From the NCBI GenBank assembly GCA_043812515.1, contig JBDRMC010000007.1, positions 1-39,010 of the forward strand: a DNA stretch of 39,010 nt, written 5' to 3'. The position numbers and the translations under genes are program-made. Position 1 is the first letter of the stretch; every line of letters starts with the position of its first letter. This document shows, one piece after another, positions 8,581 through 20,984 of the stretch. This DNA comes from Patescibacteria group bacterium. Lineage in GTDB: Bacteria; Patescibacteriota; Minisyncoccia; UBA10092. Below the pieces are notes generated by a model. That model was not told where the DNA came from. It saw only the letters and a program-made list of their open reading frames with translations, and made no database searches.

Positions 8581-11500
8581 TTAAGTTCTTTTTCCGTTTG
8601 TTGAAAATTCCCGCGCGCCATCGCAAATTATACCAAGCGTTCCGTTGCGCTGGGAAACCTTTCCTTGGACGATGATAATATTGTCTTCGCGCCAGATGTC
8701 GGGATTTTTTTCCAATATGTCCGGGAAAACAACTACTTCTATCTTATTAGCCCAATCTTCAAGTTTTGTAAAGAGCATCAAACGACCGTTTTTGGTGACA
8801 AACTTCTGTATGCCGGAAATCAGGCCGCCGATGGCAATTTTTTGTCCGACCAGCGCGGGTTTTATTTGATGGATGAGCAGCGATTTTTTCTCCATAATTT
8901 CACGATAATCCTGCATCGGATGTTCGGAGATATATAGTCCCAAAAATTCTTTTTCCCAAGCCAGTTTTTCTTTTTTTGCCGCCGGTTCGACATTTGCCAA
9001 TTTTAGCGGCGCAACCGTTGAATATGATTCAAAAAGTCCCGTTTGGGGCGCGCCGGCGTTTTTGTTGGAGTCCCTTAAATATCGCAGAATTTCTTCTATA
9101 TTGTTGTTGAGCATCCGCCTTTCATTGAAAGCGTCCAACGCTCCGCATTTTATGAGCGCTTCAAGGGATTTTTTGTTCAAATCCGATGGTGGGGTTCTTT
9201 CTAGAAAATTCTGCAAAGATAAAAATTTTTCGTTATTTTTCCTTTCTTCAATAATTCTTGAAATGGCATTGCCGCTCAAATTTTTTACCGCCGAAAAACC
9301 GAATCTGATTTTTTCGCCAGAGGCGAATCCGCCTTTGGCGGATATTCCATCCATTTCATTTTCATTTCTAACTAAGGTGAAATTTTCCAGACTTTCATTG
9401 ATGTCCGGAGGTAAAATATTTAGGCCCATTTTTTTTGTTTCGTTCATCAATATGGCGATGCGGTCCATATCAAAACTTTCCGCGTTTAGAAGAGAAGCCA
9501 TAAATTCCGCCGGGTATGTTGTTTTCAAATAGGCTGTTTGATAGGCGATAAGCGCGTAACAAGCGGCGTGCGATCTGTTAAAACCATAGCGCGCGAACGG
9601 CTCTATGAATTGCCATATTTTTTCCGCAGTTGCCGAGCCAATGCCATTGGCGATAAGACCGTTGACAAATTTTTCCGATTGCTCGTCAAGAAGCTTTTTT
9701 ATTTTTTTGCCGACGGCTTTTCTCAAAACATCGGCTTCCGAAAGAGTAAAACCGGCCATCTGGTTGGCGATTTTAATAACCTGTTCCTGATAAATGGCGA
9801 CGCCATAAGTGCTCTCCAAAATTGGCTTTAATTTAGGATGCAGATATTCAACTCTTTCCAGACCGTTTTTCCGCGCGATATAAGTCGGTATAAATTCCAT
9901 CGGGCCGGGGCGGAACGCCGCTACCATAACGATAATGTCTTCCAAGCCGGTCGGTTTCAATTCTTTCAGATAACGCCGCATTCCGGCGGATTCCAATTGA
10001 AATACTCCTGTGGTGTCGGCTCTTTTCAAAAGTTCGAAAGTTTTTTCATCGTCCAAGGGAATATTGTAAATATCTATTTTTTTTCCGTAATTTTTTTCTA
10101 TAAGTTCAAGCGTTTTTTCAATCGTTGTCAGGTTCCGCAGTCCCAAAATGTCCATTTTCAAAAGTCCCAAAGATTCAACTGAGCGCATATCATATTGGGT
10201 AACGAGCGCTTGCTCGCCATCCTTTTTGCCATTTGATTTTGTCGCCCATTGCAGGGGCATATATTCGGTAATCGGATTTTTGGTGATGACAACTCCGCAG
10301 GCGTGCGTTGAAGCGTGGCGGGCGACGCCTTCCAATTTTTTCGCGGTTTCAATCAACTGACGGGCTTGCGGGTCGGTGTCCACGGCCTGTTTCAATTCGG
10401 CGACGTTTTGAAGCGATTTTTCAAGCCAGCCGGTTTTCATTCCTTGGGTCGGGTTGAAGGGAATCATTTTGGCGATGGCGTCGCAAAAGCCGTAGCCGAA
10501 TCCCAGAACCCGGCCCGCGTCGCGTATAGCGGCGCGGGCCGCCATAGTCCCGAAAGTTATGATTTGAGCGACGTGTTCGCGGCCGTATTTTTTGGAAATA
10601 TATTCCAAAACTTCATTGCGCCTGTGGTCGGCGAAATCAAGGTCGATATCCGGTGGCGCTATGCGGTCGGGATTTAAAAATCTTTCAAAAAGAAGATTAT
10701 ATTTTATCGGGTCAAGATTGGTGATTCCCATTGAATATAAAATCAGCGAACCGGCGGCCGAACCACGGCCGGGACCGACGGCAATACCTTGATTTTTCGC
10801 CCAATTGACGATATCCCAAACTATTAAAATATATGAAGCAAAACCGGTTCTCTGGATAACGCCAAGTTCAAACTTAAAGCGTTCAAGAATTTCCTGTGGC
10901 GCGTTATCCAAGGATGAATAACCGAATTTTTTTTCAAAACCCAAAAGCGCCAATTTTTCCAAATAACTTTCCGCGGTTTCGCCCTCGGGCAATTCAAAAT
11001 GGGGGAATTGAAGATTGCCGAATTCAAATTCAAAATCAACGGCGTCGACAATTTTTTGAGGATTGCTGATTGCCTCCGGAATGTCGCTGAAAATTTTGGC
11101 CATTTCTTCTTCCGATTGGAAAGATAAATCCATTCCCTTGAGCGACAGGCGATTCGGGTCGGAAATTTTATTGCCGGTGCCGATTGCCAGCAAAGCGTCG
11201 TGATAATCTTCGTCTTCTTTTGAAATATAATGGACGTCGTTTGAGGCGACAAGAGGGATTTCAAGTTTTTTTGAAAGCTCTATTAAATCGGCGCGAAGAT
11301 TTTTATTTTCAAAATGGGGCTGGATTTCCATATAAAAATTATCTTTTCCGAAAATATCTCGGTACTCCCGCGCCGCTTCTTCGGCGGCTTCTAGTTTATT
11401 GGAAGATATAAGGTGGGGGATTTCGCCCTGCATGCATCCGGAAAGGCAAATCAATCCGTCGGCGTATTGCCGCAATAGATTTTTATCAACTCTCGGCTTG

Positions 11501-11847
11501 TAATAAAAACCTTCAAGATGAGCTTTTGTTACTAGCTGAACCAGATTTTTATATCCGGTTTTATTTTTTACCAAAAGCGTCAAATGAAATCGTTTATTGC
11601 CGGGCCCAGGATTTTTATCGGCCATGCCGCCGCTCGCCACATAAAACTCGCAGCCGATAATCGGTTTAAGCCCTGCCCGTTTGGCTTTTTGAAAAAATTC
11701 AACAGCGCCATAAATAGTCCCATGGTCGGTCAATGCCAGGGCTTCCATTCCAAGCTCCTTGGCGCGATTTACCAGGTCGTCAATTTTCGCCAGGCCGTCA
11801 AGCAAGCTGTAATGAGAGTGAACGTGAAGATGGGCGAACTTTGCCAT
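8581..11847 (-). CDS. dnaE: DNA polymerase III alpha subunit
   Basis: PHP domain FAHLHVHSHYSLLDG...LTDHG, GPGRGSAAGSLILYSMGIT, DIDLDF, FNRSHAACYA. 1088 aa. Confidence 0.97.
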   Translation of the reverse strand: MAKFAHLHVHSHYSLLDGLAKIDDLVNRAKELGMEALALTDHGTIYGAVEFFQKAKRAGLKPIIGCEFYVASGGMADKNPGPGNKRFHLTLLVKNKTGYKNLVQLVTKAHLEGFYYKPRVDKNLLRQYADGLICLSGCMQGEIPHLISSNKLEAAEEAAREYRDIFGKDNFYMEIQPHFENKNLRADLIELSKKLEIPLVASNDVHYISKEDEDYHDALLAIGTGNKISDPNRLSLKGMDLSFQSEEEMAKIFSDIPEAISNPQKIVDAVDFEFEFGNLQFPHFELPEGETAESYLEKLALLGFEKKFGYSSLDNAPQEILERFKFELGVIQRTGFASYILIVWDIVNWAKNQGIAVGPGRGSAAGSLILYSMGITNLDPIKYNLLFERFLNPDRIAPPDIDLDFADHRRNEVLEYISKKYGREHVAQIITFGTMAARAAIRDAGRVLGFGYGFCDAIAKMIPFNPTQGMKTGWLEKSLQNVAELKQAVDTDPQARQLIETAKKLEGVARHASTHACGVVITKNPITEYMPLQWATKSNGKKDGEQALVTQYDMRSVESLGLLKMDILGLRNLTTIEKTLELIEKNYGKKIDIYNIPLDDEKTFELLKRADTTGVFQLESAGMRRYLKELKPTGLEDIIVMVAAFRPGPMEFIPTYIARKNGLERVEYLHPKLKPILESTYGVAIYQEQVIKIANQMAGFTLSEADVLRKAVGKKIKKLLDEQSEKFVNGLIANGIGSATAEKIWQFIEPFARYGFNRSHAACYALIAYQTAYLKTTYPAEFMASLLNAESFDMDRIAILMNETKKMGLNILPPDINESLENFTLVRNENEMDGISAKGGFASGEKIRFGFSAVKNLSGNAISRIIEERKNNEKFLSLQNFLERTPPSDLNKKSLEALIKCGALDAFNERRMLNNNIEEILRYLRDSNKNAGAPQTGLFESYSTVAPLKLANVEPAAKKEKLAWEKEFLGLYISEHPMQDYREIMEKKSLLIHQIKPALVGQKIAIGGLISGIQKFVTKNGRLMLFTKLEDWANKIEVVVFPDILEKNPDIWREDNIIIVQGKVSQRNGTLGIICDGAREFSTNGKRT
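9313..9342 (-). repeat. 30-nt double-hairpin element (R element) in frame inside dnaE
   Basis: On the minus strand it reads TCCGCCAAAGGCGGATTCGCCTCTGGCGAA and encodes SAKGGFASGE. Homologous to 16412-16441, 20305-20334 and 20724-20753. Confidence 0.8.
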
Positions 11848-16186: not shown

Positions 16187-16627
16187 ATGAATAAAAAACT
16201 ATTGTTATTTATAATTGGGCTTATTATTTTAGCGATTGCCGGCGTGGTTATTTTTTATAATTCTGATTCACCGCCGATAAATAATGATTTTATTCAATCA
16301 ACCGCGCAAGCGCCGGCAGTAGAGGGCGATATTATTAATTCCGGTATCGCCGGCAGAGTGGTCTTGTTGGGTGGCGGACCGTATGAATATGAAGCATCTC
16401 TTGAAATTTTCTCCGCCAAAGGCGGATCCGCCTCTGGCGGAGAAAATGATACGCCCTTTATTTCAATCCGGACTCACAGTGATGGGACTTTCCAGATTCC
16501 TTTGCGTCCCGGCTCTTATATTTTGAAACCCACGGATCCCGATGGTTCCATCGCGCCGGCTCGCGACAACTATCCTTTTACGGTGGGCAATGGACAATGG
16601 CTTCAGGTTAGAGTTGAATATAGATAA
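16187..16627 (+). CDS. Signal-anchored hypothetical protein with a carboxypeptidase-regulatory-like beta-sandwich segment
   Basis: N-terminal TM helix. DGTFQIPLRPGSYILKP motif. Contains an in-frame R element. Confidence 0.7.
   Translation: MNKKLLLFIIGLIILAIAGVVIFYNSDSPPINNDFIQSTAQAPAVEGDIINSGIAGRVVLLGGGPYEYEASLEIFSAKGGSASGGENDTPFISIRTHSDGTFQIPLRPGSYILKPTDPDGSIAPARDNYPFTVGNGQWLQVRVEYR
16412..16441 (+). repeat. 30-nt double-hairpin element (R element), in frame
   Basis: TCCGCCAAAGGCGGATCCGCCTCTGGCGGA encodes SAKGGSASGG. Confidence 0.8.
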
Positions 16628-16628
16628 C

Positions 16629-18416
16629 ATGACTGACCAGGTTCAGGAGATAAAAGAAAAACTTAATATAGTCGACGTAATCTCCGGCTATATCCGCCTG
16701 CAAAAAGCCGGCATCAACCACAAAGGATTGTGTCCGTTTCATAATGAGAAGACGCCGTCATTTATGGTTTCGCCGTCGCGCCAAAACTGGCACTGCTTCG
16801 GCTGCGCCGAAGGCGGCGATATTTTTACGTTCATTCAAAAAATCGAAGGCGTCGAATTTCTGGAAGCGCTGAAAATTTTAGCGGAAAAAGCGGGAGTGGC
16901 TTTGAAATACAGCGACCCGAAATTGCGGACCGAAAAAGACAGAATTTATGAAATCTGCGAAAAAGCAACTCAATTTTTTTCCGCTTCATTAAATAATACG
17001 GGTGATATTTCAGATTATCTTCGCAAAAGGGGGGTGCGGGAGGAAACCGTAAACGAATGGCGGCTCGGTTACGCGCCGGATTCCTGGAATTCACTTTTGT
17101 CATTTTTATCAAAGCAGGGCTATCGCGAAGCGGAAATGGAAAAAGCCGGTTTGGTTATCCAGGCAGTAAAATATCACGACAGGTTCAGAAACCGTCTGAT
17201 GTTTCCGATTTTTGATTCCAACGGGCGCGTAGTGGCTTTTTCCGGCCGTATCATGGGCGACATTATTCCTTCCAAAACTGAAAGAGCCGACAGCGGCAAA
17301 TATGTCAATTCTCCGGAAACGATTTTATATAGCAAAAGCAAAATTCTTTACGGTTTGGATAAGGCAAAAACGGAAATAAGAAAAGCCGATAATGTAGTTT
17401 TGGTTGAGGGACAAATGGATGCGATTCTGCCGTGGCAAGACGGAATAAAAAATATTGTGGCGACATCGGGCACGGCTTTAACCGAAAATCATCTTTCAAT
17501 TTTGAAACGGCTCACCAACAATTTAATTTTAGCCTTTGATATGGACGATGCCGGTTTTCGCGCCACCAAACGCGGTATTGATTTGGCGAATGAATTGGGA
17601 TTCGGCGTTTCGGTTTTGGACATTTCTTCGGGCAAAGACCCCGCCGATTTCGTCAAAGAACGGCCGGGAGAATTTGCCAAGCTTGTTTTGGAGAGCCAGC
17701 CGATTATGGCTTATTATTTCAACCGGGTGTTCGGTAAATTTTCAGCCGACAAAATTGAAGGAAAAAAATTCATTGCCATAACCTTGCTTCCCGAAATAAA
17801 GCGTTTGCCCAGCGCCGTGGAAAGAAGCGGCTGGCTCAGAGAACTGTCACTGCGACTGGGGGTTTCCGAAGGCGACCTGAAAGAAGAAATGGAACGCCCC
17901 GATGCCGAGATTGACGTGCCGTTGAGAAATGCTGTCCCTTCGGGCCAAAAGGCCGATTCAACTTCGGAACGGGGACGACGGGGACGGCGAGAAATTTTGA
18001 GCGAACGCCTTTTGGCGTTATTATTAAAAAAGCCGGAATTTATCGCCGAAGCGGTTAAAGCGGCCGCTATTTTACCTAAAAACGATTTTGAAATCTTAAG
18101 CGCTTTAGTGGCGAATCAAAACGAATTTTCCGCGACAAGGGCGGCGCTTTCCGCGGATTTGCGCCCGCGGCTCGACTTTTTATATCTTGCCGGCGATTAC
18201 GAGTTGGAAAAAGCGGATGCCAATTTTAATATCGGCGATGAAGTGAAACTTTTAATTAAAGAAATCGAACGCGAACGCCACAAAGAAAGTTTACAAAAAA
18301 TCGGCCAGCAAATAAGAAAATGCGAGGCGGAAGAAGGCCTCGATATGAATCAATTGACGGAGGAATTCCAAAACGTTACCAATAAACTCTATAAAATAGA
18401 TGAAAACAAAAAATAA
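16629..18416 (+). CDS. dnaG: DNA primase. The ATG at 16629 is preferred over the track start at 16542.
   Basis: Zinc finger [25 protein letters not shown], Toprim VVLVEGQMD and FDMDDAG. Confidence 0.93.
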
Positions 18417-19635
18417 AAAAAATACTGCTAGAAAAAAACAAGGCAAGAGCCCGAAAGCGATTAAGAGAGCCGCAAAAGATGCGAGACTCAAAAACAGGTT
18501 GAAATCCAAATTGAGAAAAAAAATAAAACCGGCGCCGAAAGTTAATAAGAAAGAGCGGATTTTCGAAGGACGCGTTCAGGCCATAATCAGTCGCGGTCGG
18601 GAGAGAGGATTTATCACCGAAACGGAAATTTTAAAATTTTTTCCGGATGTTGAAAAAGATATCACGGAACTTGAACGTCTTTATGACCGCTTGGAAGAAG
18701 CGAGCATTAAAGTTGAGGAGAGCCGGGAATTTATAGAAGAGGTAATTCCGGAGCCGAGCGAAGAGGAAATCAACAAGGCGTTGAATATTGAAGCGGATGA
18801 CACAATAGCCTTTGATTCGGTGCAATTATATCTCCGAGAAATCGGCAAAACCCCGCTTTTAACAAGCGACGAAGAAAAAGAATTGGCGAAAAAGAATGAA
18901 AAGGGCGACCTTGAAGCGCGAAACAAATTGATTCAGTCAAACTTGCGGCTGGTCGTTTCAATCGCCAAGCGCTATATCGGCCGCAGTCCGAACTTGACTC
19001 TTTTGGATTTGATTCAAGAAGGAAATATGGGACTGGCGCGGGCGGTTGACAAGTTTGATTACCGCCGGGGTTTCAAATTTTCAACATACGCCACTTGGTG
19101 GATAAGGCAGGCGATAACCAGAGCGTTGGCCGACCAGTCGCGCACCATCAGAATCCCGGTACACATGGTTGAAACTATTTCCAAATATACTCAAATGAAA
19201 CGGCGGTTGTTCCAGGATTTGGGCAGAGAACCGTTGCCGGAAGAAGTTGCCTCCGAAATGGGCATTGATATTGAAAAAGTCCGCCATATAATAAAAATTT
19301 CCCAAGACACGATTTCTTTTGAATCACCGGTCGGCGACGACGAAGATGATTCATCGCTTGGCGATTTTATTGAAGACGAAAAAGGAATAACGCCGGTGCA
19401 ATCGGCGGCGATGCGCCTTTTGGCCGACCAGATAAAAGAAATTATCAATGATCTCCAGCCGCGGGAACAGAAAATTTTGAAAATGAGATTCGGTCTGGAA
19501 GACGGGGTGGCGCACACGCTTGAAGAAGTCGGCAACGAATTCGGGGTTACCCGCGAGCGTATCCGCCAGATTGAGTTCAAAGCGCTGGAAAGAATTCGCC
19601 AGCATCATAATCTAAAAAAACTTGAAGGATATTAA
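18400..19635 (+). CDS. rpoD: RNA polymerase sigma-70 factor RpoD
   Basis: [62 protein letters not shown], region 4 [20 protein letters not shown]. Confidence 0.95.
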
Positions 19636-19725
19636 AATTGCAAATTTTCTAAGATTATTGTAGAATTCCCCGAGGTAAAAAGGGTTCATTGAAATATAAT
19701 AAAAGTTTCGGAAGGGAGGATATAA

Positions 19726-20112
19726 TTGAGAAATAAGAAGTTTTTGGCGATTCGCGAGGAGATTCGCAAAATGATGCAATCTTCTCAAGGACATTTGTCC
19801 TGTAAAATAGGGAAAAAAAGAGAAGAAAAAATAAAAGAATCTCTCCAAGAATTGAAAGAAGGGGGAATTATTCGTGATTTTTTACAGACAAATAAGCTTT
19901 CTTTCCCGGATATTGTAAGAGGGATTGATTTTTTTGTTATTCATGTAAGTGGCGCGAAATACAAGGTTTGCCCTCTTTCCGTTACAGGAGAGAGGTGGGT
20001 GAAAGGGGACCAGGATCGGCATCCAAATGTTCCAGTTGTTGCGATAGATCTTTCCGATACTTCCAATGCCATAAAAGGCAAAATTATGGAGGCGATAGGC
20101 CAAAATAAATAG
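19726..20112 (+). CDS. Hypothetical protein (128 aa), TTG start
   Basis: Strong Shine-Dalgarno GGAAGGGAGGA 5 nt upstream of the TTG. A terminator follows. No family recognised. Confidence 0.6.
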   Translation: MRNKKFLAIREEIRKMMQSSQGHLSCKIGKKREEKIKESLQELKEGGIIRDFLQTNKLSFPDIVRGIDFFVIHVSGAKYKVCPLSVTGERWVKGDQDRHPNVPVVAIDLSDTSNAIKGKIMEAIGQNK

Positions 20113-20113
20113 G

Positions 20114-20151
20114 GGCTCTTTGTAGTGAATATCTTTACAAAGAGCCTTTTT
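20114..20151 (+). terminator. Rho-independent terminator
   Basis: GGCTCTTTGTA...TACAAAGAGCC (11-bp stem) followed by TTTTT. Confidence 0.85.
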
Positions 20152-20299
20152 AAATTTAGTATGTATTCGTATATTCCGACATAGCGAAATGGGTGGAAGC
20201 GAGCAAGCGAGCTTTCACGGGCGTTCAATAATTTTATACTTTGCTGAACTCCGACATAGCTCAACGGTAGAGCGACTCCCTGTTAAGGAGTGGGTTCCT

Positions 20300-20340
20300 G
20301 GTTCTGCGCCAAAGGCGCATCCGCCTCTGGCGGAGAATCC
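20300..20340 (+). repeat. 41-bp direct repeat, left copy (GGTTC + R element + GAATCC)
   Basis: Identical to 20719-20759. Confidence 0.9.
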
Positions 20341-20377
20341 TAAAACATTAAATAATTTTAAATATAGATATCTGCGC

Positions 20378-20449
20378 TCCGACATAGCTCAACGGTAGAG
20401 CGACTCCCTGTTAAGGAGTGGGTTCCTGGTTCGAATCCAGGTGTCGGAG
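20378..20449 (+). tRNA. tRNA-Asn (anticodon GTT), intact; CCA not encoded
   Basis: TCCGACA acceptor, GCTC/GAGC D stem, ACTCC-CTGTTAA-GGAGT anticodon arm, CCTGG-TTCGAAT-CCAGG T arm, TGTCGGA plus discriminator G. Confidence 0.93.
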
Positions 20450-20473
20450 CGGAGATATCTATATCGCACGGGC

Positions 20474-20719
20474 ATGTATTATATTTATGTTATTAAAAGT
20501 TTGATTCACAATACTAGATATGTTGGCAGTACTGACAGAATAGAAAAACGAATTTCGGAACATAATTTAGGAAAGTGTCGTTACACGAGCGGTCGTCAGC
20601 CTTGGAAGTTAATATATCAAGAGGAATACAAAACACGAGGCGAGGCAATGAAAAGAGAAAAATTTTTAAAGTCTGGCATAGGTAGAAAATATTTGGATAA
20701 AGTATTAAAACAATTGTAG
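20474..20719 (+). CDS. Small GIY-YIG nuclease-family protein (81 aa). The ATG at 20474 is preferred over the track GTG at 20441, which lies inside the tRNA.
   Basis: YYIYVIKS...RYVGSTDRIEKRISEHN...WKLIYQEEY..R.EAMKREKFLK pattern of stand-alone GIY-YIG (URI-domain) proteins. Confidence 0.85.
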   Translation: MYYIYVIKSLIHNTRYVGSTDRIEKRISEHNLGKCRYTSGRQPWKLIYQEEYKTRGEAMKREKFLKSGIGRKYLDKVLKQL

Positions 20720-20759
20720 GTTCTGCGCCAAAGGCGCATCCGCCTCTGGCGGAGAATCC
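20719..20759 (+). repeat. 41-bp direct repeat, right copy
   Basis: Identical to 20300-20340. Its first base is the last base of the GIY-YIG stop codon. Confidence 0.9.
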
Positions 20760-20816
20760 AGGTGTCGGAGCAAATTTCTTTTAGTCAACCTTATATGGTT
20801 GTGATATGATTTTTAT

Positions 20817-20984
20817 ATGAATAAAAGTAGAATAATATACTCCATTCTCGCAATATTATTTGGGGTATTTATGTTTGTGTATGGTGAAATTGACGATAGT
20901 CCTGGAGGGCAGTTGCTCGGACTTATAGCAGTTATTATCGGCATTGTGGGCGTGATAAAGAGCAAGAAAAAACATTCTAATTAA
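20817..20984 (+). CDS. Small two-TM membrane protein (55 aa), below the ORF-track size cutoff
   Basis: ATG..TAA reading MNKSRIIYSILAILFGVFMFVYGEIDDSPGGQLLGLIAVIIGIVGVIKSKKKHSN: two hydrophobic helices and a basic tail. Confidence 0.45.
   Translation: MNKSRIIYSILAILFGVFMFVYGEIDDSPGGQLLGLIAVIIGIVGVIKSKKKHSN

Follow-up and report, generated by a model that had tools for sequence, protein, structure and literature searches.

A tRNA-Asn gene interrupted by a cassette with its own tRNA-Asn and a nuclease gene

Within the window (the entire stretch of 39,010 nt that was analyzed), a cassette of 449 bp divides the T-loop motif GGTTC|GAATCC of the resident tRNA-Asn gene at its center. The cassette contains an intact tRNA-Asn followed by the gene of a small GIY-YIG nuclease (Table 1). 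After removal of this cassette (20305-20753) in silico, the joined ends (20250-20304 and 20754-20771) are called as tRNA-Asn by ARAGORN and are identical in sequence to the inner tRNA. The outer 5' part, which yields a sub-threshold Rfam tRNA match of 24.2 bits, is, judged by its sequence, a displaced remnant of the resident gene, and the inner tRNA-Asn is the predicted functional replacement copy. The cassette is bounded by 41-bp direct repeats, whose tRNA-derived portion corresponds exactly to the 11-nt T-loop motif GGTTCGAATCC, with a double hairpin, referred to as R, in its middle. The inner tRNA is framed by an inverted repeat with 23-nt arms (20362-20384 and 20442-20464; 96% complementary), which combines a perfect 12-bp core with the acceptor stem.

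A+T-rich spacers are found in the same position in 9/9 loci of the tRNA-Asn class, and a consensus promoter scan gave no match inside the spacer of the window. The nuclease gene is co-oriented with the inner tRNA, and the two are probably co-transcribed; no Shine-Dalgarno sequence is evident before the nuclease ORF. The earlier note on this DNA had described an outer 5' part identical to the inner tRNA, 41-bp bounding repeats, an intact inner tRNA-Asn within a 12-bp inverted repeat, an 81-aa GIY-YIG ORF abutting the second repeat, and the restoration of a perfect tRNA-Asn by a 449-bp deletion, all of which was confirmed. Its statement that the ends of the insert are copies of a hairpin element also held, with the refinement that R consists of two 6-bp hairpins in 30 nt.

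Table 1. Positions of the features of the interrupted tRNA-Asn locus and of solo R copies in the window.
Feature	Position	Strand	Evidence or remark
Possible older remnant, tentative: TCCGACATAGC (tRNA positions 1-11), hairpin-like stretch, then CACGGGC	20175..20235	+	11/11 matched, E 0.027, weak
Outer tRNA-Asn, 5' part (acceptor 5' strand to T-loop GGTTC)	20250..20304	+	100% identical to inner 20378-20432
Direct repeat of 41 bp, left copy (GGTTC + R + GAATCC)	20300..20340	+	100% identical to 20719-20759
R, left copy (30-nt GC-rich double hairpin)	20305..20334	.	Between GGTTC and GAATCC of the T loop
A+T-rich spacer, left repeat to leader arm	20341..20361	+	Possible internal promoter
Leader arm of inverted repeat	20362..20377	+	Inverted-repeat match; extends acceptor stem of inner tRNA
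Inner intact tRNA-Asn(GTT)	20378..20450	+	ARAGORN; Rfam RF00005 at 20378-20449, 70.9 bits
Trailer arm of inverted repeat	20450..20464	+	Inverted-repeat match, pairing, covariation
Stand-alone GIY-YIG nuclease gene (81 aa)	20474..20719	+	Pfam PF01541, E 7.8e-16
Direct repeat of 41 bp, right copy (GGTTC + R + GAATCC)	20719..20759	+	First G is the last base of the nuclease TAG stop codon
R, right copy	20724..20753	.	0 mismatches
Outer tRNA-Asn, 3' part (GAATCC + T-stem 3' strand + acceptor 3' strand + GC)	20754..20771	+	GAATCCAGGTGTCGGAGC, equals 20433-20450
Solo R copy	16412..16441	.	In frame in ORF 16187-16627, encodes SAKGGSASGG; flanks ATTTTC / GAAAAT
Solo R copy	9313..9342	.	In frame in dnaE (ORF 8581-11847, minus strand), encodes SAKGGFASGE

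The nuclease consists of a GIY-YIG catalytic domain only

By sequence, catalytic residues, and predicted fold, the encoded protein belongs to the GIY-YIG superfamily. It scores 58.6 bits against the corresponding Pfam family (cut-off 22.6), with an additional weak, sub-threshold match to the related T5orf172 family. Residues Y5, G18, R26, H30, N31, and E62 are invariant in 32 homologs, at least 90% of which also share Y16. The AlphaFold model (pLDDT 95.9) has the secondary-structure order E-E-H-E-H-H, and its nearest structures according to Foldseek are the Slx1 nuclease domain (TM about 0.7, rmsd 1.5-2), BH0048, and I-TevI. Furthermore, a profile search against the PDB matched 1zg2 (E 4.7e-12) and 1ywl (E 4.3e-11), and the identity with yazA amounts to 39%. 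As a stand-alone small domain with similarity to BH0048 and EF2693, the protein can be counted on sequence grounds among the UPF0213 (YhbQ/YazA-like) proteins, for which we know of no established function; since the similarity is distant, we treat it as a separate subfamily. Slx1 itself needs Slx4 and has an extra domain.

The entire 81-aa protein is catalytic domain (UPF0213/Slx1-like), and a DNA-binding module that would recognize a long target is absent from it, with members of the family ranging from 79 to 130 aa. This makes sequence-specific homing hard to picture. Moreover, the GIY-YIG gene is the only credible ORF between the repeats, and no gene for an integrase or a tyrosine or serine recombinase was found in the cassette.

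The double-hairpin element R is part of the nuclease loci and occurs in frame in protein genes

The two hairpins of R (TGCGCC-AAA-GGCGCA and TCCGCC-TCT-GGCGGA in the left copy of the window) are predicted to fold with -18.5 kcal/mol using RNA parameters and -13.1 kcal/mol using DNA parameters, and their stems covary among 62 distinct copies. Mismatches in these stems comprise 6 G-T and 6 A-C pairs and are uninformative. R and its reverse complement share one form; hence no orientation with respect to transcription can be assigned to R, and for the same reason an orientation derived from the purine-rich first loop was discarded.

Besides its role as the element that splits the T-loop motif, R is found elsewhere in the window. 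Three matches were obtained at ≤3 mismatches, compared to 0.00 expected from 100 shuffles, and a copy in dnaE brings the number to four. The three solo copies that we identified all begin at codon position 1. In LepA of locus L001, the R-encoded FAEGGSASGG aligns with a 10-residue gap of Thermus EF4 and corresponds to a 10-aa insertion. R is, like the palindromic elements of Rickettsia (RPEs), a short, multi-copy, palindromic repeat that lies in frame in protein genes when these are compared with their homologs. A common insertion target, TTC|GAA, was also considered: the T loop and the 16412 copy agree with it, but the copy at 9313 and the D-arm and anticodon-stem junctions do not, and it was rejected.

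Going beyond the earlier note, R is, to judge from the loci compared, an integral module of this nuclease subfamily. It adjoins the nuclease genes of the subfamily in most loci, within whichever tRNA arm forms the junction, and an R-type double hairpin is present in 48 of the 80 loci of nuclease relatives taken from species genomes. In most loci with the nuclease gene immediately upstream of the tRNA, R is located 40-65 nt before the ATG.

A leader/trailer stem extends the inner tRNA

The inner tRNA-Asn of the cassette is carried on a leader/trailer stem of 14-16 bp. Contiguous leader/trailer pairing of 12-15 bp was found for 10/10 tRNA-Asn genes linked to a GIY-YIG gene and is absent from tRNA-Asn genes without a nuclease gene; covariation is indicated by 93% of cells being paired compared to 73% in shuffles. 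The sense strand of the stem is slightly more stable in 18 loci versus 8 (p 0.05), which hints at a role at the RNA level. The stem was also found in many tRNA-Gln and tRNA-Tyr loci. A stem universal to the family was ruled out by its absence from the Ser, Leu, Ile, and Arg classes, and leader/trailer pairing did not differ between family tRNAs and other tRNAs overall (p 0.22).

The nested arrangement recurs in a large family of tRNA-associated nuclease genes

The nested tRNA-Asn layout was identified in eight other independent assemblies, and all nine loci, including the window, share the order of outer 5' part, R, spacer, stem, tRNA, nuclease gene, R, and outer 3' end, except that the second repeat is missing in L001 and L011. 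Three different nuclease homologs are found 20-28 nt after tRNA-Asn in L001-L010. Among the 80 nuclease relatives from species genomes, 62 have a tRNA gene on the same strand within 60 nt, and 55 are flanked by partial copies of the adjoining tRNA, with break points within or beside its D, anticodon, or T arm. The nuclease family itself comprises 6514 clusters at E<=1e-10, and the nested design occurs beside many different tRNA genes in hundreds of Patescibacteria, which are ultra-small, and other bacteria. By these comparisons, the locus belongs to a very large family of small GIY-YIG genes associated with tRNAs, a scale beyond the earlier note. Its members appear to follow a common rule, in which an intact tRNA lies beside the nuclease gene and displaced tRNA pieces are broken by GC-rich hairpins at the D, anticodon, or T arm. 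No published description of the nested arrangement was found in the literature searched, which left out most subscription journals, and this family of elements linking GIY-YIG and tRNA genes has apparently not been described so far.

This recurrence bears on the possibility that collapsed or chimeric repeats from strain variants produced the arrangement during assembly. The contig of the window is of the metagenome type, short contigs carry many of the homologs, and the repeat array of L020 contains a run of N; however, the same order is present in independent JGI, ENA, and NCBI assemblies, including contigs of 585 kb and 488 kb, and we regard an artefact as highly implausible.

The earlier note had also considered a duplication mediated by R. 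Such a local rearrangement without mobility, in which tandem duplication, slippage, or unequal crossing-over at the R palindromes duplicated tRNA-Asn around a pre-existing nuclease gene, fits the window taken alone, where the outer and inner copies are 100% identical. Palindromes are fragile, and tandem partial copies exist in L020 and in L173, which has three tandem units ahead of tRNA-Arg. It fails, however, to explain the family-wide pattern, as the nested order recurs in the eight other assemblies with diverged sequences. Furthermore, compensatory changes in the acceptor, D, or anticodon stem distinguish the outer from the inner tRNA of L001, L005, and L011, indicating that two functional alleles were combined, and mosaics of outer and inner alleles were seen in L017 and L037 as well. 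The same rule also applies with other tRNAs in nuclease-upstream loci and in loci with D- or anticodon-arm junctions, which requires a general mechanism and not a local accident. An origin by local rearrangement is, in our judgment, improbable.

Outer tRNA copies are degenerate in several relatives. A hairpin takes the place of part of the outer anticodon arm in L004, L013, and L014 and of part or all of it in L019 and L083, the outer acceptor halves are mismatched in L017 and L037, the outer right-hand part is lost in L011, and the copies in L020 are truncated. These outer copies would be unable to give a tRNA, which argues against the outer gene being spliced, or its halves being joined, at the RNA level into a second tRNA-Asn. 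Although the removal of the insert yields a perfect tRNA, no group I intron, other intron, or ribozyme family was matched: Rfam returned only tRNA matches within 20100-20900 at E up to 5, and no ribozyme or intron in the whole window at gathering scores. In addition, the host is bacterial, as seen from its sigma-70 RpoD, DnaG, and DnaE. The intron-like insert suggested earlier is hence disfavored, and an intron or split tRNA can be considered very unlikely.

Other remnants differ in form. L038 and L020 contain contiguous, 5'-truncated tRNA copies with R in the T loop and no cassette inside, some remnants in other clades (L078 and L083) keep an intact T arm, and L027, L031, and L034 have kept an uninterrupted repeat of 54-68 nt. 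Identical hairpins are common to the outer parts of L005 and L017, and L020 and L030 likewise share theirs. Together with the mosaic tRNA alleles, these hairpins are compatible with, but no proof of, a co-conversion of flanking markers from donor to recipient. Several genomes harbor multiple copies at different tRNAs (L020 with L030; L040 with L065), and nucleases of one tRNA type and junction group together in the tree, which, along with the tandem units of L173, may be signs of spread or amplification. A near-identical cassette at two different genomic sites was not seen. Searches of phage, plasmid, and viral collections returned only distant UPF0213-like matches, with no close nuclease relatives and no R, and PHROG gave only weak matches to the nuclease; a phage or plasmid vehicle is unsupported given these results.

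The site downstream of rpoD is found empty, occupied, and as a relic

The position downstream of rpoD is a conserved location of tRNA-Asn, which allowed the comparison of empty and occupied alleles that the earlier note had proposed; the matched rpoD genes are 45-72% identical to that of the window and belong to distant relatives. A plain tRNA-Asn follows rpoD in L092, L097, L099, L106, L109, and L111, and a relic tRNA-Asn does so in L096 and L101, whereas the site is occupied in the window, L004, L115, and L091. In L004, the outer 5' piece begins 75 nt after rpoD, where the empty loci have their tRNA-Asn. The cassettes of L115 and L091 are of other types, and two different cassette architectures and nuclease subfamilies are found after rpoD. 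Presence/absence polymorphism at a conserved site, as known for homing genes, is observed here among distant relatives. An rpoD scan of metagenomes revealed no close relative with an empty site (best rpoD matches 58-72% identical), and there were no exact-protein records for the helicase and nuclease of the window, and consequently no strain-level alleles.

A proposed homing-type cassette that brings its own tRNA

The reading that we consider somewhat better than an even bet is that the locus represents a selfish cassette of the homing type, which resides in tRNA genes and brings a working tRNA. The nuclease would break the DNA of tRNA genes, either at the T-loop motif, as does T4 SegB, or at hairpin or cruciform structures, an option raised by its Slx1-like fold. 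The break would be repaired by copying of the cassette, for which the conserved tRNA sequence could serve as homology arms, and because the cassette supplies a working tRNA, its insertion would be tolerated and not lethal. The leader/trailer stem may allow the tRNA to be excised from a joint transcript. Hairpins are proposed to plug the junction loop of leftover copies, which would render these copies non-functional and probably uncleavable, and recombination between the repeats would result in an R-disrupted tRNA and no clean revertant. The uninterrupted repeats of L027, L031, and L034 indicate that such poisoning of repeats by hairpins is not universal. Of the homing or integrative mini-element proposed earlier, the homing part provides the best fit to the comparative evidence, namely the recurrence in eight other assemblies, the relatives with a plain tRNA-Asn, and the mosaics of two alleles; the lack of an integrase speaks against the integrative part.

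In an integrative scenario, a circle of 419 bp (one repeat, spacer, tRNA, and nuclease gene) would have entered by site-specific or homologous recombination at an attachment site GGTTC-R-GAATCC, within a target tRNA-Asn that already had R in its T loop. The perfect 41-bp direct repeats are located exactly at the ends, cassette-free, 5'-truncated tRNA copies with R in the T loop do exist (L038 and L020), and partial tRNA copies are classical at the ends of integrated elements (PMC9897764). However, the cassette has no recombinase gene, its sole protein being a GIY-YIG domain above the Pfam cut-off. GIY-YIG enzymes hydrolyze DNA, and we know of no strand transfer by them. Moreover, the second repeat is missing not only in L001 and L011 but in most family members, which have a single R, and a sole tRNA-Asn with R would have been non-functional before integration. 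We regard this scenario as a poor prospect.

With respect to the homing-type cassette, some observations point the other way. The intact inner tRNA retains the presumed target motif, a difficulty for immunity to the nuclease, and long vertical inheritance could also be the reason why the nucleases cluster by tRNA type. Furthermore, the ORFs are nearly always intact, unlike the usual decay of homing endonuclease genes, and a useful host function would fit this equally well. A domesticated operon, in which a host DNA-repair or structure-specific nuclease is expressed from tRNA units and the tRNA-like pieces and R form a structured leader or trailer (for mRNA stability, processing, or autoregulation) with no footprint of mobility, would agree with the invariance of the catalytic residues in nearly all loci, the size of the family, the nuclease clades following tRNA type, the fixed distance between R and the ATG in most nuclease-upstream loci, the stability bias of the tRNA stem, and the nearest solved relatives being chromosomal UPF0213 proteins. 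On the other hand, the rpoD-downstream site with its empty, occupied, and relic states and its two nuclease subfamilies and cassette architectures, the partial tRNA copies in the flanks as leftovers of insertion events, the combination of different functional alleles in outer and inner tRNAs, and the tandem arrays are at odds with it, and the R stems show no excess of G-T over A-C mismatches. We consider such an operon unlikely, while taking it seriously.

More speculatively, R and the small GIY-YIG proteins might form a new nuclease-driven mobile system. The Slx1-like nuclease would break hairpin-forming DNA, such as tRNA genes, spread would occur by repair with tRNA homology, and the element would be hard to lose, as it holds the sole intact tRNA and its hairpins poison leftover repeats; R would disperse non-autonomously, even in frame into dnaE and lepA. 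We put this forward as a tentative idea. If true, it would represent a GIY-YIG counterpart of REP/RAYT and RPE, with an addiction-like hold on an essential tRNA.

Comparison with known systems

Phage T4 SegB resembles the nuclease described here in being encoded by a free-standing GIY-YIG gene among tRNA genes. It is a phage protein of about 220 aa with an added DNA-binding part, whereas the present protein is an 81-aa catalytic domain closer to UPF0213 and Slx1, and SegB comes without tRNA-gene interruption, replacement tRNA, or hairpin modules. The preferred 27-bp site of SegB lies inside the tRNA-Asn gene and has the conserved core GGTTCRANTCC (PMC2330249), i.e., the T-loop motif that R splits here. 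SegB also promotes the inheritance and segmental amplification of tRNA regions (PMC13096335), which recalls the tandem units of L173 and L020.

Genomic islands and prophages in tRNA genes insert at the anticodon-loop or T-loop region and leave partial tRNA direct repeats (PMC9897764; Williams 2002 cited there). Like the cassette, integrase-borne islands preserve the function of the tRNA, through a copy of the displaced part that they carry along, and leave partial tRNA copies behind. However, the cassette has no integrase and is only about 0.3-0.45 kb in size, and members of its family bring a whole tRNA or the 5' part, whereas islands bring the 3' part. In addition, the repeats here are GGTTC-R-GAATCC; since they are interrupted by hairpins, neither junction itself restores the tRNA, which is instead provided by a separate internal copy.

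Group I introns (of the I-TevI type, and those of bacterial tRNA genes) likewise combine a nuclease ORF with an insert that interrupts a conserved RNA gene, and the catalytic domain of I-TevI has the same fold. In contrast to these introns, the cassette has no ribozyme core and is located in the T loop and not in the anticodon loop, and rescue would be achieved at the DNA level by a second gene copy without splicing. The rRNA genes of CPR bacteria contain introns or intervening sequences, whose removal takes place at the RNA level and whose endonucleases are mostly of other families. Such insertion sequences with homing endonucleases (PMC11270868) share with the cassette the host group and the nature of endonuclease-bearing selfish inserts in structural RNA genes, but the cassette targets a tRNA gene and would be rescued by a duplicated gene.

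RPEs are palindromic repeats found in frame inside essential protein genes, and R resembles them through its copies in LepA and DnaE. The likeness to REP/RAYT is one of layout only, with a nuclease-type gene flanked by repeat copies. R differs from RPE and REP elements in being only 30 nt long and in that most of its copies lie within tRNA remnants, and the gene flanked by R encodes a GIY-YIG protein, whereas RAYT is an HUH (Y1) transposase. R extends in-frame palindromic repeats in essential proteins beyond Rickettsia to the Candidate Phyla Radiation and is the first repeat of this kind to be linked to a candidate nuclease.

In sequence and structure, the nuclease is best matched by UPF0213/YhbQ/YazA and Slx1, and its size matches UPF0213. 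The family offers a testable role for the widespread small GIY-YIG (UPF0213-like) proteins that lack a function, and the cassettes can account for the tRNA pseudogenes, incomplete tRNA calls, and broken assemblies that are pervasive among genomes of Patescibacteria. Given that few sequences in biology are as conserved as tRNA genes, a cassette of 0.3-0.45 kb that inserts into them with a spare tRNA and moves between phyla would, if indeed mobile, be among the smallest self-sufficient selfish elements, and it would have found a new way to colonize an essential gene, through rescue by DNA-level replacement instead of splicing. Should the nuclease recognize DNA hairpins or the T-loop motif, which is universal, it may serve as a minimal structure- or tRNA-gene-specific tool.

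A possible older remnant upstream of the outer tRNA-Asn

Upstream of the outer tRNA-Asn, a further stretch may tentatively be regarded as an older tRNA remnant (Table 1). The heptamer CACGGGC of this stretch is also found before the ATG of the nuclease gene.

Anatomy of the nested tRNA-Asn locus

As the earlier note had described from the sequence, an interrupted outer tRNA-Asn gene encloses an intact inner one, the 5' parts and the 3' ends being identical between the two. The inner tRNA was called by both ARAGORN and Rfam, and the direct repeats, the inverted repeat around the inner tRNA and the GIY-YIG ORF were likewise confirmed (Table). Joining 20250-20304 to 20754-20771 in silico yields exactly the inner tRNA sequence, bearing out the claim that removal of the insert restores a tRNA-Asn. 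Both leftover tRNA copies in the window have their T-loop motif split by R, a 30-nt GC-rich pair of hairpins.

Table. Coordinates of the nested tRNA-Asn locus and of R copies within protein genes
Feature	Coordinates	Strand	Remarks
Outer tRNA-Asn 5' part	20250-20304	+	same sequence as inner copy 20378-20432
Direct repeat, GGTTC + R + GAATCC	20300-20340 and 20719-20759	+	41 bp, perfect
Inverted arms	20362-20384 and 20442-20464		23 nt, 96% complementary
Inner intact tRNA-Asn(GTT)	20378-20450 (ARAGORN); 20378-20449 (Rfam)	+	Rfam 70.9 bits
GIY-YIG ORF	20474-20719	+	81 aa; Pfam E 7.8e-16
Outer tRNA-Asn 3' end	20754-20771	+	18 nt; identical to 20433-20450
Solo R in dnaE	9313-9342	minus	in frame, from codon position 1; SAKGGFASGE
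Solo R in ORF 16187-16627	16412-16441		in frame, from codon position 1; SAKGGSASGG
R in lepA of L001 (comparison locus)	1095-1124	minus	FAEGGSASGG

The stretch 20175-20235 contains TCCGACATAGC (tRNA-Asn bases 1-11), followed by a hairpin-like stretch and CACGGGC, a heptamer also present immediately 5' of the nuclease ATG (20467-20473); on weak evidence (E 0.027), it may be a remnant left by an older cassette. The flanking ORFs of 128 aa (19726-20112) and 55 aa (20817-20984) show no relation to the cassette and have no above-threshold Pfam match, and the latter resembles a small membrane protein.

Empty, occupied and relic states of the locus in relatives

Metagenomes were scanned with the RpoD of the window, and the region downstream of rpoD was read in the recovered loci (handles with the prefix L denote loci or contigs from other genomes or metagenomes). 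The order of rpoD followed by tRNA-Asn(GTT) on the same strand, 45-400 nt apart, is conserved in many of these relatives (L091-L170; window 18400-20450). The comparison that the earlier note had called for revealed empty, occupied and relic states at this site. A plain tRNA-Asn lies 45-156 nt after rpoD in L092, L097, L099, L106, L109, and L111, and no nuclease gene, R or extended stem was found downstream of rpoD in these loci. L096 and L101 are relics with 5' and 3' remnants and no ORF; L091 is nested, with a nuclease of another subfamily and other hairpins; and in the variant L115, the nuclease gene lies immediately upstream of the tRNA-Asn, with hairpins studding its 5' copy. Since the outer 5' part of L004 begins 75 nt 3' of rpoD, where empty loci keep their tRNA, the outer gene appears to be the resident one.

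Nuclease relatives of 79-85 aa are numerous (65-80% identity), chiefly in Patescibacteria metagenomes, and in three distinct relatives, the gene starts 20-28 nt 3' of a tRNA-Asn. The same nested order is common to eight other loci (L001, L004, L005, L011, L013, L014, L017, and L037): outer tRNA-Asn 5' part, GGTTC, R, GAATCC, A+T-rich spacer, leader arm, intact tRNA-Asn, trailer arm, nuclease ORF, and again GGTTC, R, GAATCC, before the outer 3' end, with the right-hand R missing in L001 and L011. The layout is therefore neither an artefact nor a local accident.

The outer copies frequently bear extra hairpins: CCTGCCTGCCGGTAGGCAGG is identical within the D arm of L005 and L017, and the 5' half of the anticodon arm is swapped for a TCCGCCTTAGGCGGA-type hairpin in L004, L013, and L014. 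L017 also carries a 30-nt insertion at outer tRNA position 36/37, and in L017 and L037, pairing between the outer 5' and 3' halves is lost. An archaeal-type intron is rejected on account of this degeneration, and a group I intron because Rfam found no ribozyme; the suggestion of an intron-like insert is not supported. In L001, L005, and L011, compensatory changes in the acceptor, D or anticodon stems set the outer tRNA apart from the inner one; these loci thus unite two functional tRNA-Asn alleles.

A large family of tRNA-associated nucleases

The window locus belongs to a very large family associated with tRNA genes. A profile search at E<=1e-10 returned 6514 clusters (50% identity), nearly all of 79-130 aa, and when each species was represented by a single genome, the scan recovered 463 relatives, from which 80 loci were kept. 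A same-strand tRNA lies within 60 nt of the nuclease gene in 62 of these 80, partial copies of the adjoining tRNA are nearby in 55, and 48 contain an R-type double hairpin. The tRNAs involved include Gln, Tyr, Asn, Ser, Leu, Arg, Ile, Lys, Phe, Pro, Met, and Val, while the hosts are mostly Patescibacteria, along with Ignavibacteria, Bacteroidota, Margulisiibacteriota, Omnitrophota, Marinimicrobia, and Acidobacteriota. Besides the nested tRNA-Asn form, two layouts recur: a tRNA 5' part up to the junction, R, 5-8 further tRNA bases, linker, nuclease gene and intact tRNA; and an intact tRNA, nuclease gene and 3' partial copy with a hairpin. Where the nuclease gene is directly upstream of the tRNA, R mostly lies 40-65 nt 5' of the ATG.

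The placement of R follows whichever tRNA part makes the junction, be it the T loop (GGTTC|R|GAATCC), the anticodon loop (ccttt|R|gaagc), the D loop (agtggttt|R|aactggca) or, in one tRNA-Asn clade, the 5' strand of the anticodon stem. Other clades have a different hairpin, CCTGCC...GGCAGG, at the equivalent spot, e.g., in the T loop of a tRNA-Leu remnant. Common to all is a GC-rich hairpin that plugs the leftover tRNA copy at its junction.

A second conserved hairpin family (CCTGCCTGCCGGYAGGCAGG and variants) breaks tRNA remnants beside GIY-YIG genes (L005 2775-2794, L017 2249-2268, L115 about 805-825, L061, L063, and L173) in Patescibacteria, Flavobacteriaceae, Marinimicrobia, and one 7.3-Mb genome. 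A 15-nt hairpin (TCCGCCTTAGGCGGA or TCCGCCTAAGGCGGA) substitutes for the anticodon stem-loop nearly base for base in the partial copies of L019 (2408-2422) and L083 (about 2746-2760), resulting in tRNA-like sequence without an anticodon. In several loci (L027, L034, and L052), the nuclease stop codon lies within the first bases of the downstream tRNA, so that ORF and tRNA gene overlap.

The R element

R (TGCGCCAAAGGCGCATCCGCCTCTGGCGGA) folds into two 6-bp hairpins with 3-nt loops. Three matches with at most 3 mismatches were found in the window, compared to none expected in shuffles, and a fourth copy lies in dnaE. We obtained 62 distinct copies overall, and the consensus drawn from 59 distinct 30-nt copies reads T[GC][CA]GCC-ARA-GGC[GT][CG]A [TC][CT][CA]GCC-TYY-GGC[GT][GA][AG]. 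The stems covary inside each hairpin; because R and its reverse complement are alike in form, orientation is unreadable from the sequence, and the equal numbers of C-A and T-G mismatches (6 each) give no sign of an RNA-only constraint. The peptide encoded by R in LepA (EF4) of L001 aligns opposite a 10-residue gap in Thermus thermophilus EF4, which marks a genuine in-frame insertion into a protein that is highly conserved. In occurring solo and in frame in protein genes, R behaves like the Rickettsia palindromic elements; the rpoD loci of other genomes, 480 kb in all, yielded no copy of it.

A leader/trailer stem around the inner tRNA

In all 10 GIY-linked tRNA-Asn loci checked, leader and trailer lengthen the acceptor stem by 12-15 contiguous pairs that differ in sequence each time, whereas tRNA-Asn genes without a nuclease gene have no such stem, except for a partial one in relic L101. 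Across nine aligned loci, 93% of stem cells pair, compared to 73% after shuffling and about 40% with partners slid, and 25 stem pairs are altered on both sides. Of 26 informative loci, 18 have a stem that is more stable on the sense than on the antisense strand (p 0.05), which hints weakly at a role in RNA, e.g., as a processing stem freeing the tRNA from a joint transcript. The stem is also present in many Gln and Tyr loci and absent in the Ser, Leu, Ile, and Arg classes.

The nuclease and its possible mode of action

The catalytic residues are invariant across 32 homologs, and AlphaFold gives a high-confidence model (pLDDT 95.9). The solved structures closest in sequence belong to BH0048 and EF2693, both UPF0213 proteins, with Slx1 next; structural comparison places the nuclease nearest to BH0048, the nuclease domain of Slx1 (TM about 0.7, rmsd 1.5-2 A) and the catalytic domain of I-TevI. 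The protein is too small to hold a DNA-binding domain, and PHROG and NCBIfam searches gave only weak homing-endonuclease matches. Membership among Seg-type endonucleases is rejected, as the DNA-binding part is missing and similarity is weak. The closest experimentally studied case is T4 SegB, a GIY-YIG homing endonuclease within a tRNA cluster whose 27-bp site lies inside a tRNA-Asn gene, with the conserved core GGTTCRANTCC (PMC2330249), and which can amplify tRNA segments (PMC13096335); R of the window splits this core motif exactly.

Of the homing or integrative mini-element proposed in the earlier note, the integrase-borne island is excluded, since there is no recombinase and the junctions fail to restore the gene. 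The facts fit a homing-type selfish cassette residing in tRNA genes, a reading that we consider slightly more likely than not. The nuclease would break tRNA-gene DNA, recognizing the T-loop motif or, in view of its Slx1-like minimal fold, hairpin-forming DNA; repair of the break would copy the cassette, with the tRNA as homology, while the tRNA that the cassette carries would keep the cell viable. The hairpins would render the remnants non-functional and probably uncleavable, and recombination of the 41-bp repeats would delete the sole intact tRNA, leaving an R-disrupted gene. However, four points count against homing and suit a long-resident, possibly useful gene equally well: the inner tRNA retains the presumed target motif, some family members retain long uninterrupted repeats, nuclease ORFs are almost never decayed, and nuclease clades track tRNA types, matching the junction as well in the tree.

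As a homing-type cassette, the unit would work most like free-standing homing endonuclease genes, while sharing the target-restoring trick of integrative elements. Full-text literature searches, which cover subscription journals incompletely, turned up no account of the arrangement.

Copy number, breakpoints and tandem units

Phage, plasmid, and viral collections yielded no close nuclease relatives and no R copies. Several copies can occur per genome at different tRNAs (pairs L020/L030 and L040/L065), L020 and L030 being 69% identical with a D-loop hairpin in common. L005 and L006-L010, which have an identical nuclease, are 98% identical through the entire nested locus and diverge from 3-4 nt past the outer tRNA 3' end (L005 3309-3312); the remnant 3' end may therefore still act as a breakpoint or integration site for other DNA.

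In the 7.3-Mb genome (L173/L174, 740-1851), a single intact tRNA-Arg(CCT) follows a tandem array of three 343-bp units. Each unit pairs a GIY-YIG gene with a 5' fragment of tRNA-Arg that holds two CCTGCC...GGCAGG hairpins, and the three ORFs have diverged from one another. L020 (2860-3280) contains three tandem 5'-truncated tRNA-Gln copies downstream of an intact tRNA-Gln, one of them including an N run (assembly gap), and each has an anticodon-loop hairpin, R in the T loop and a terminator.
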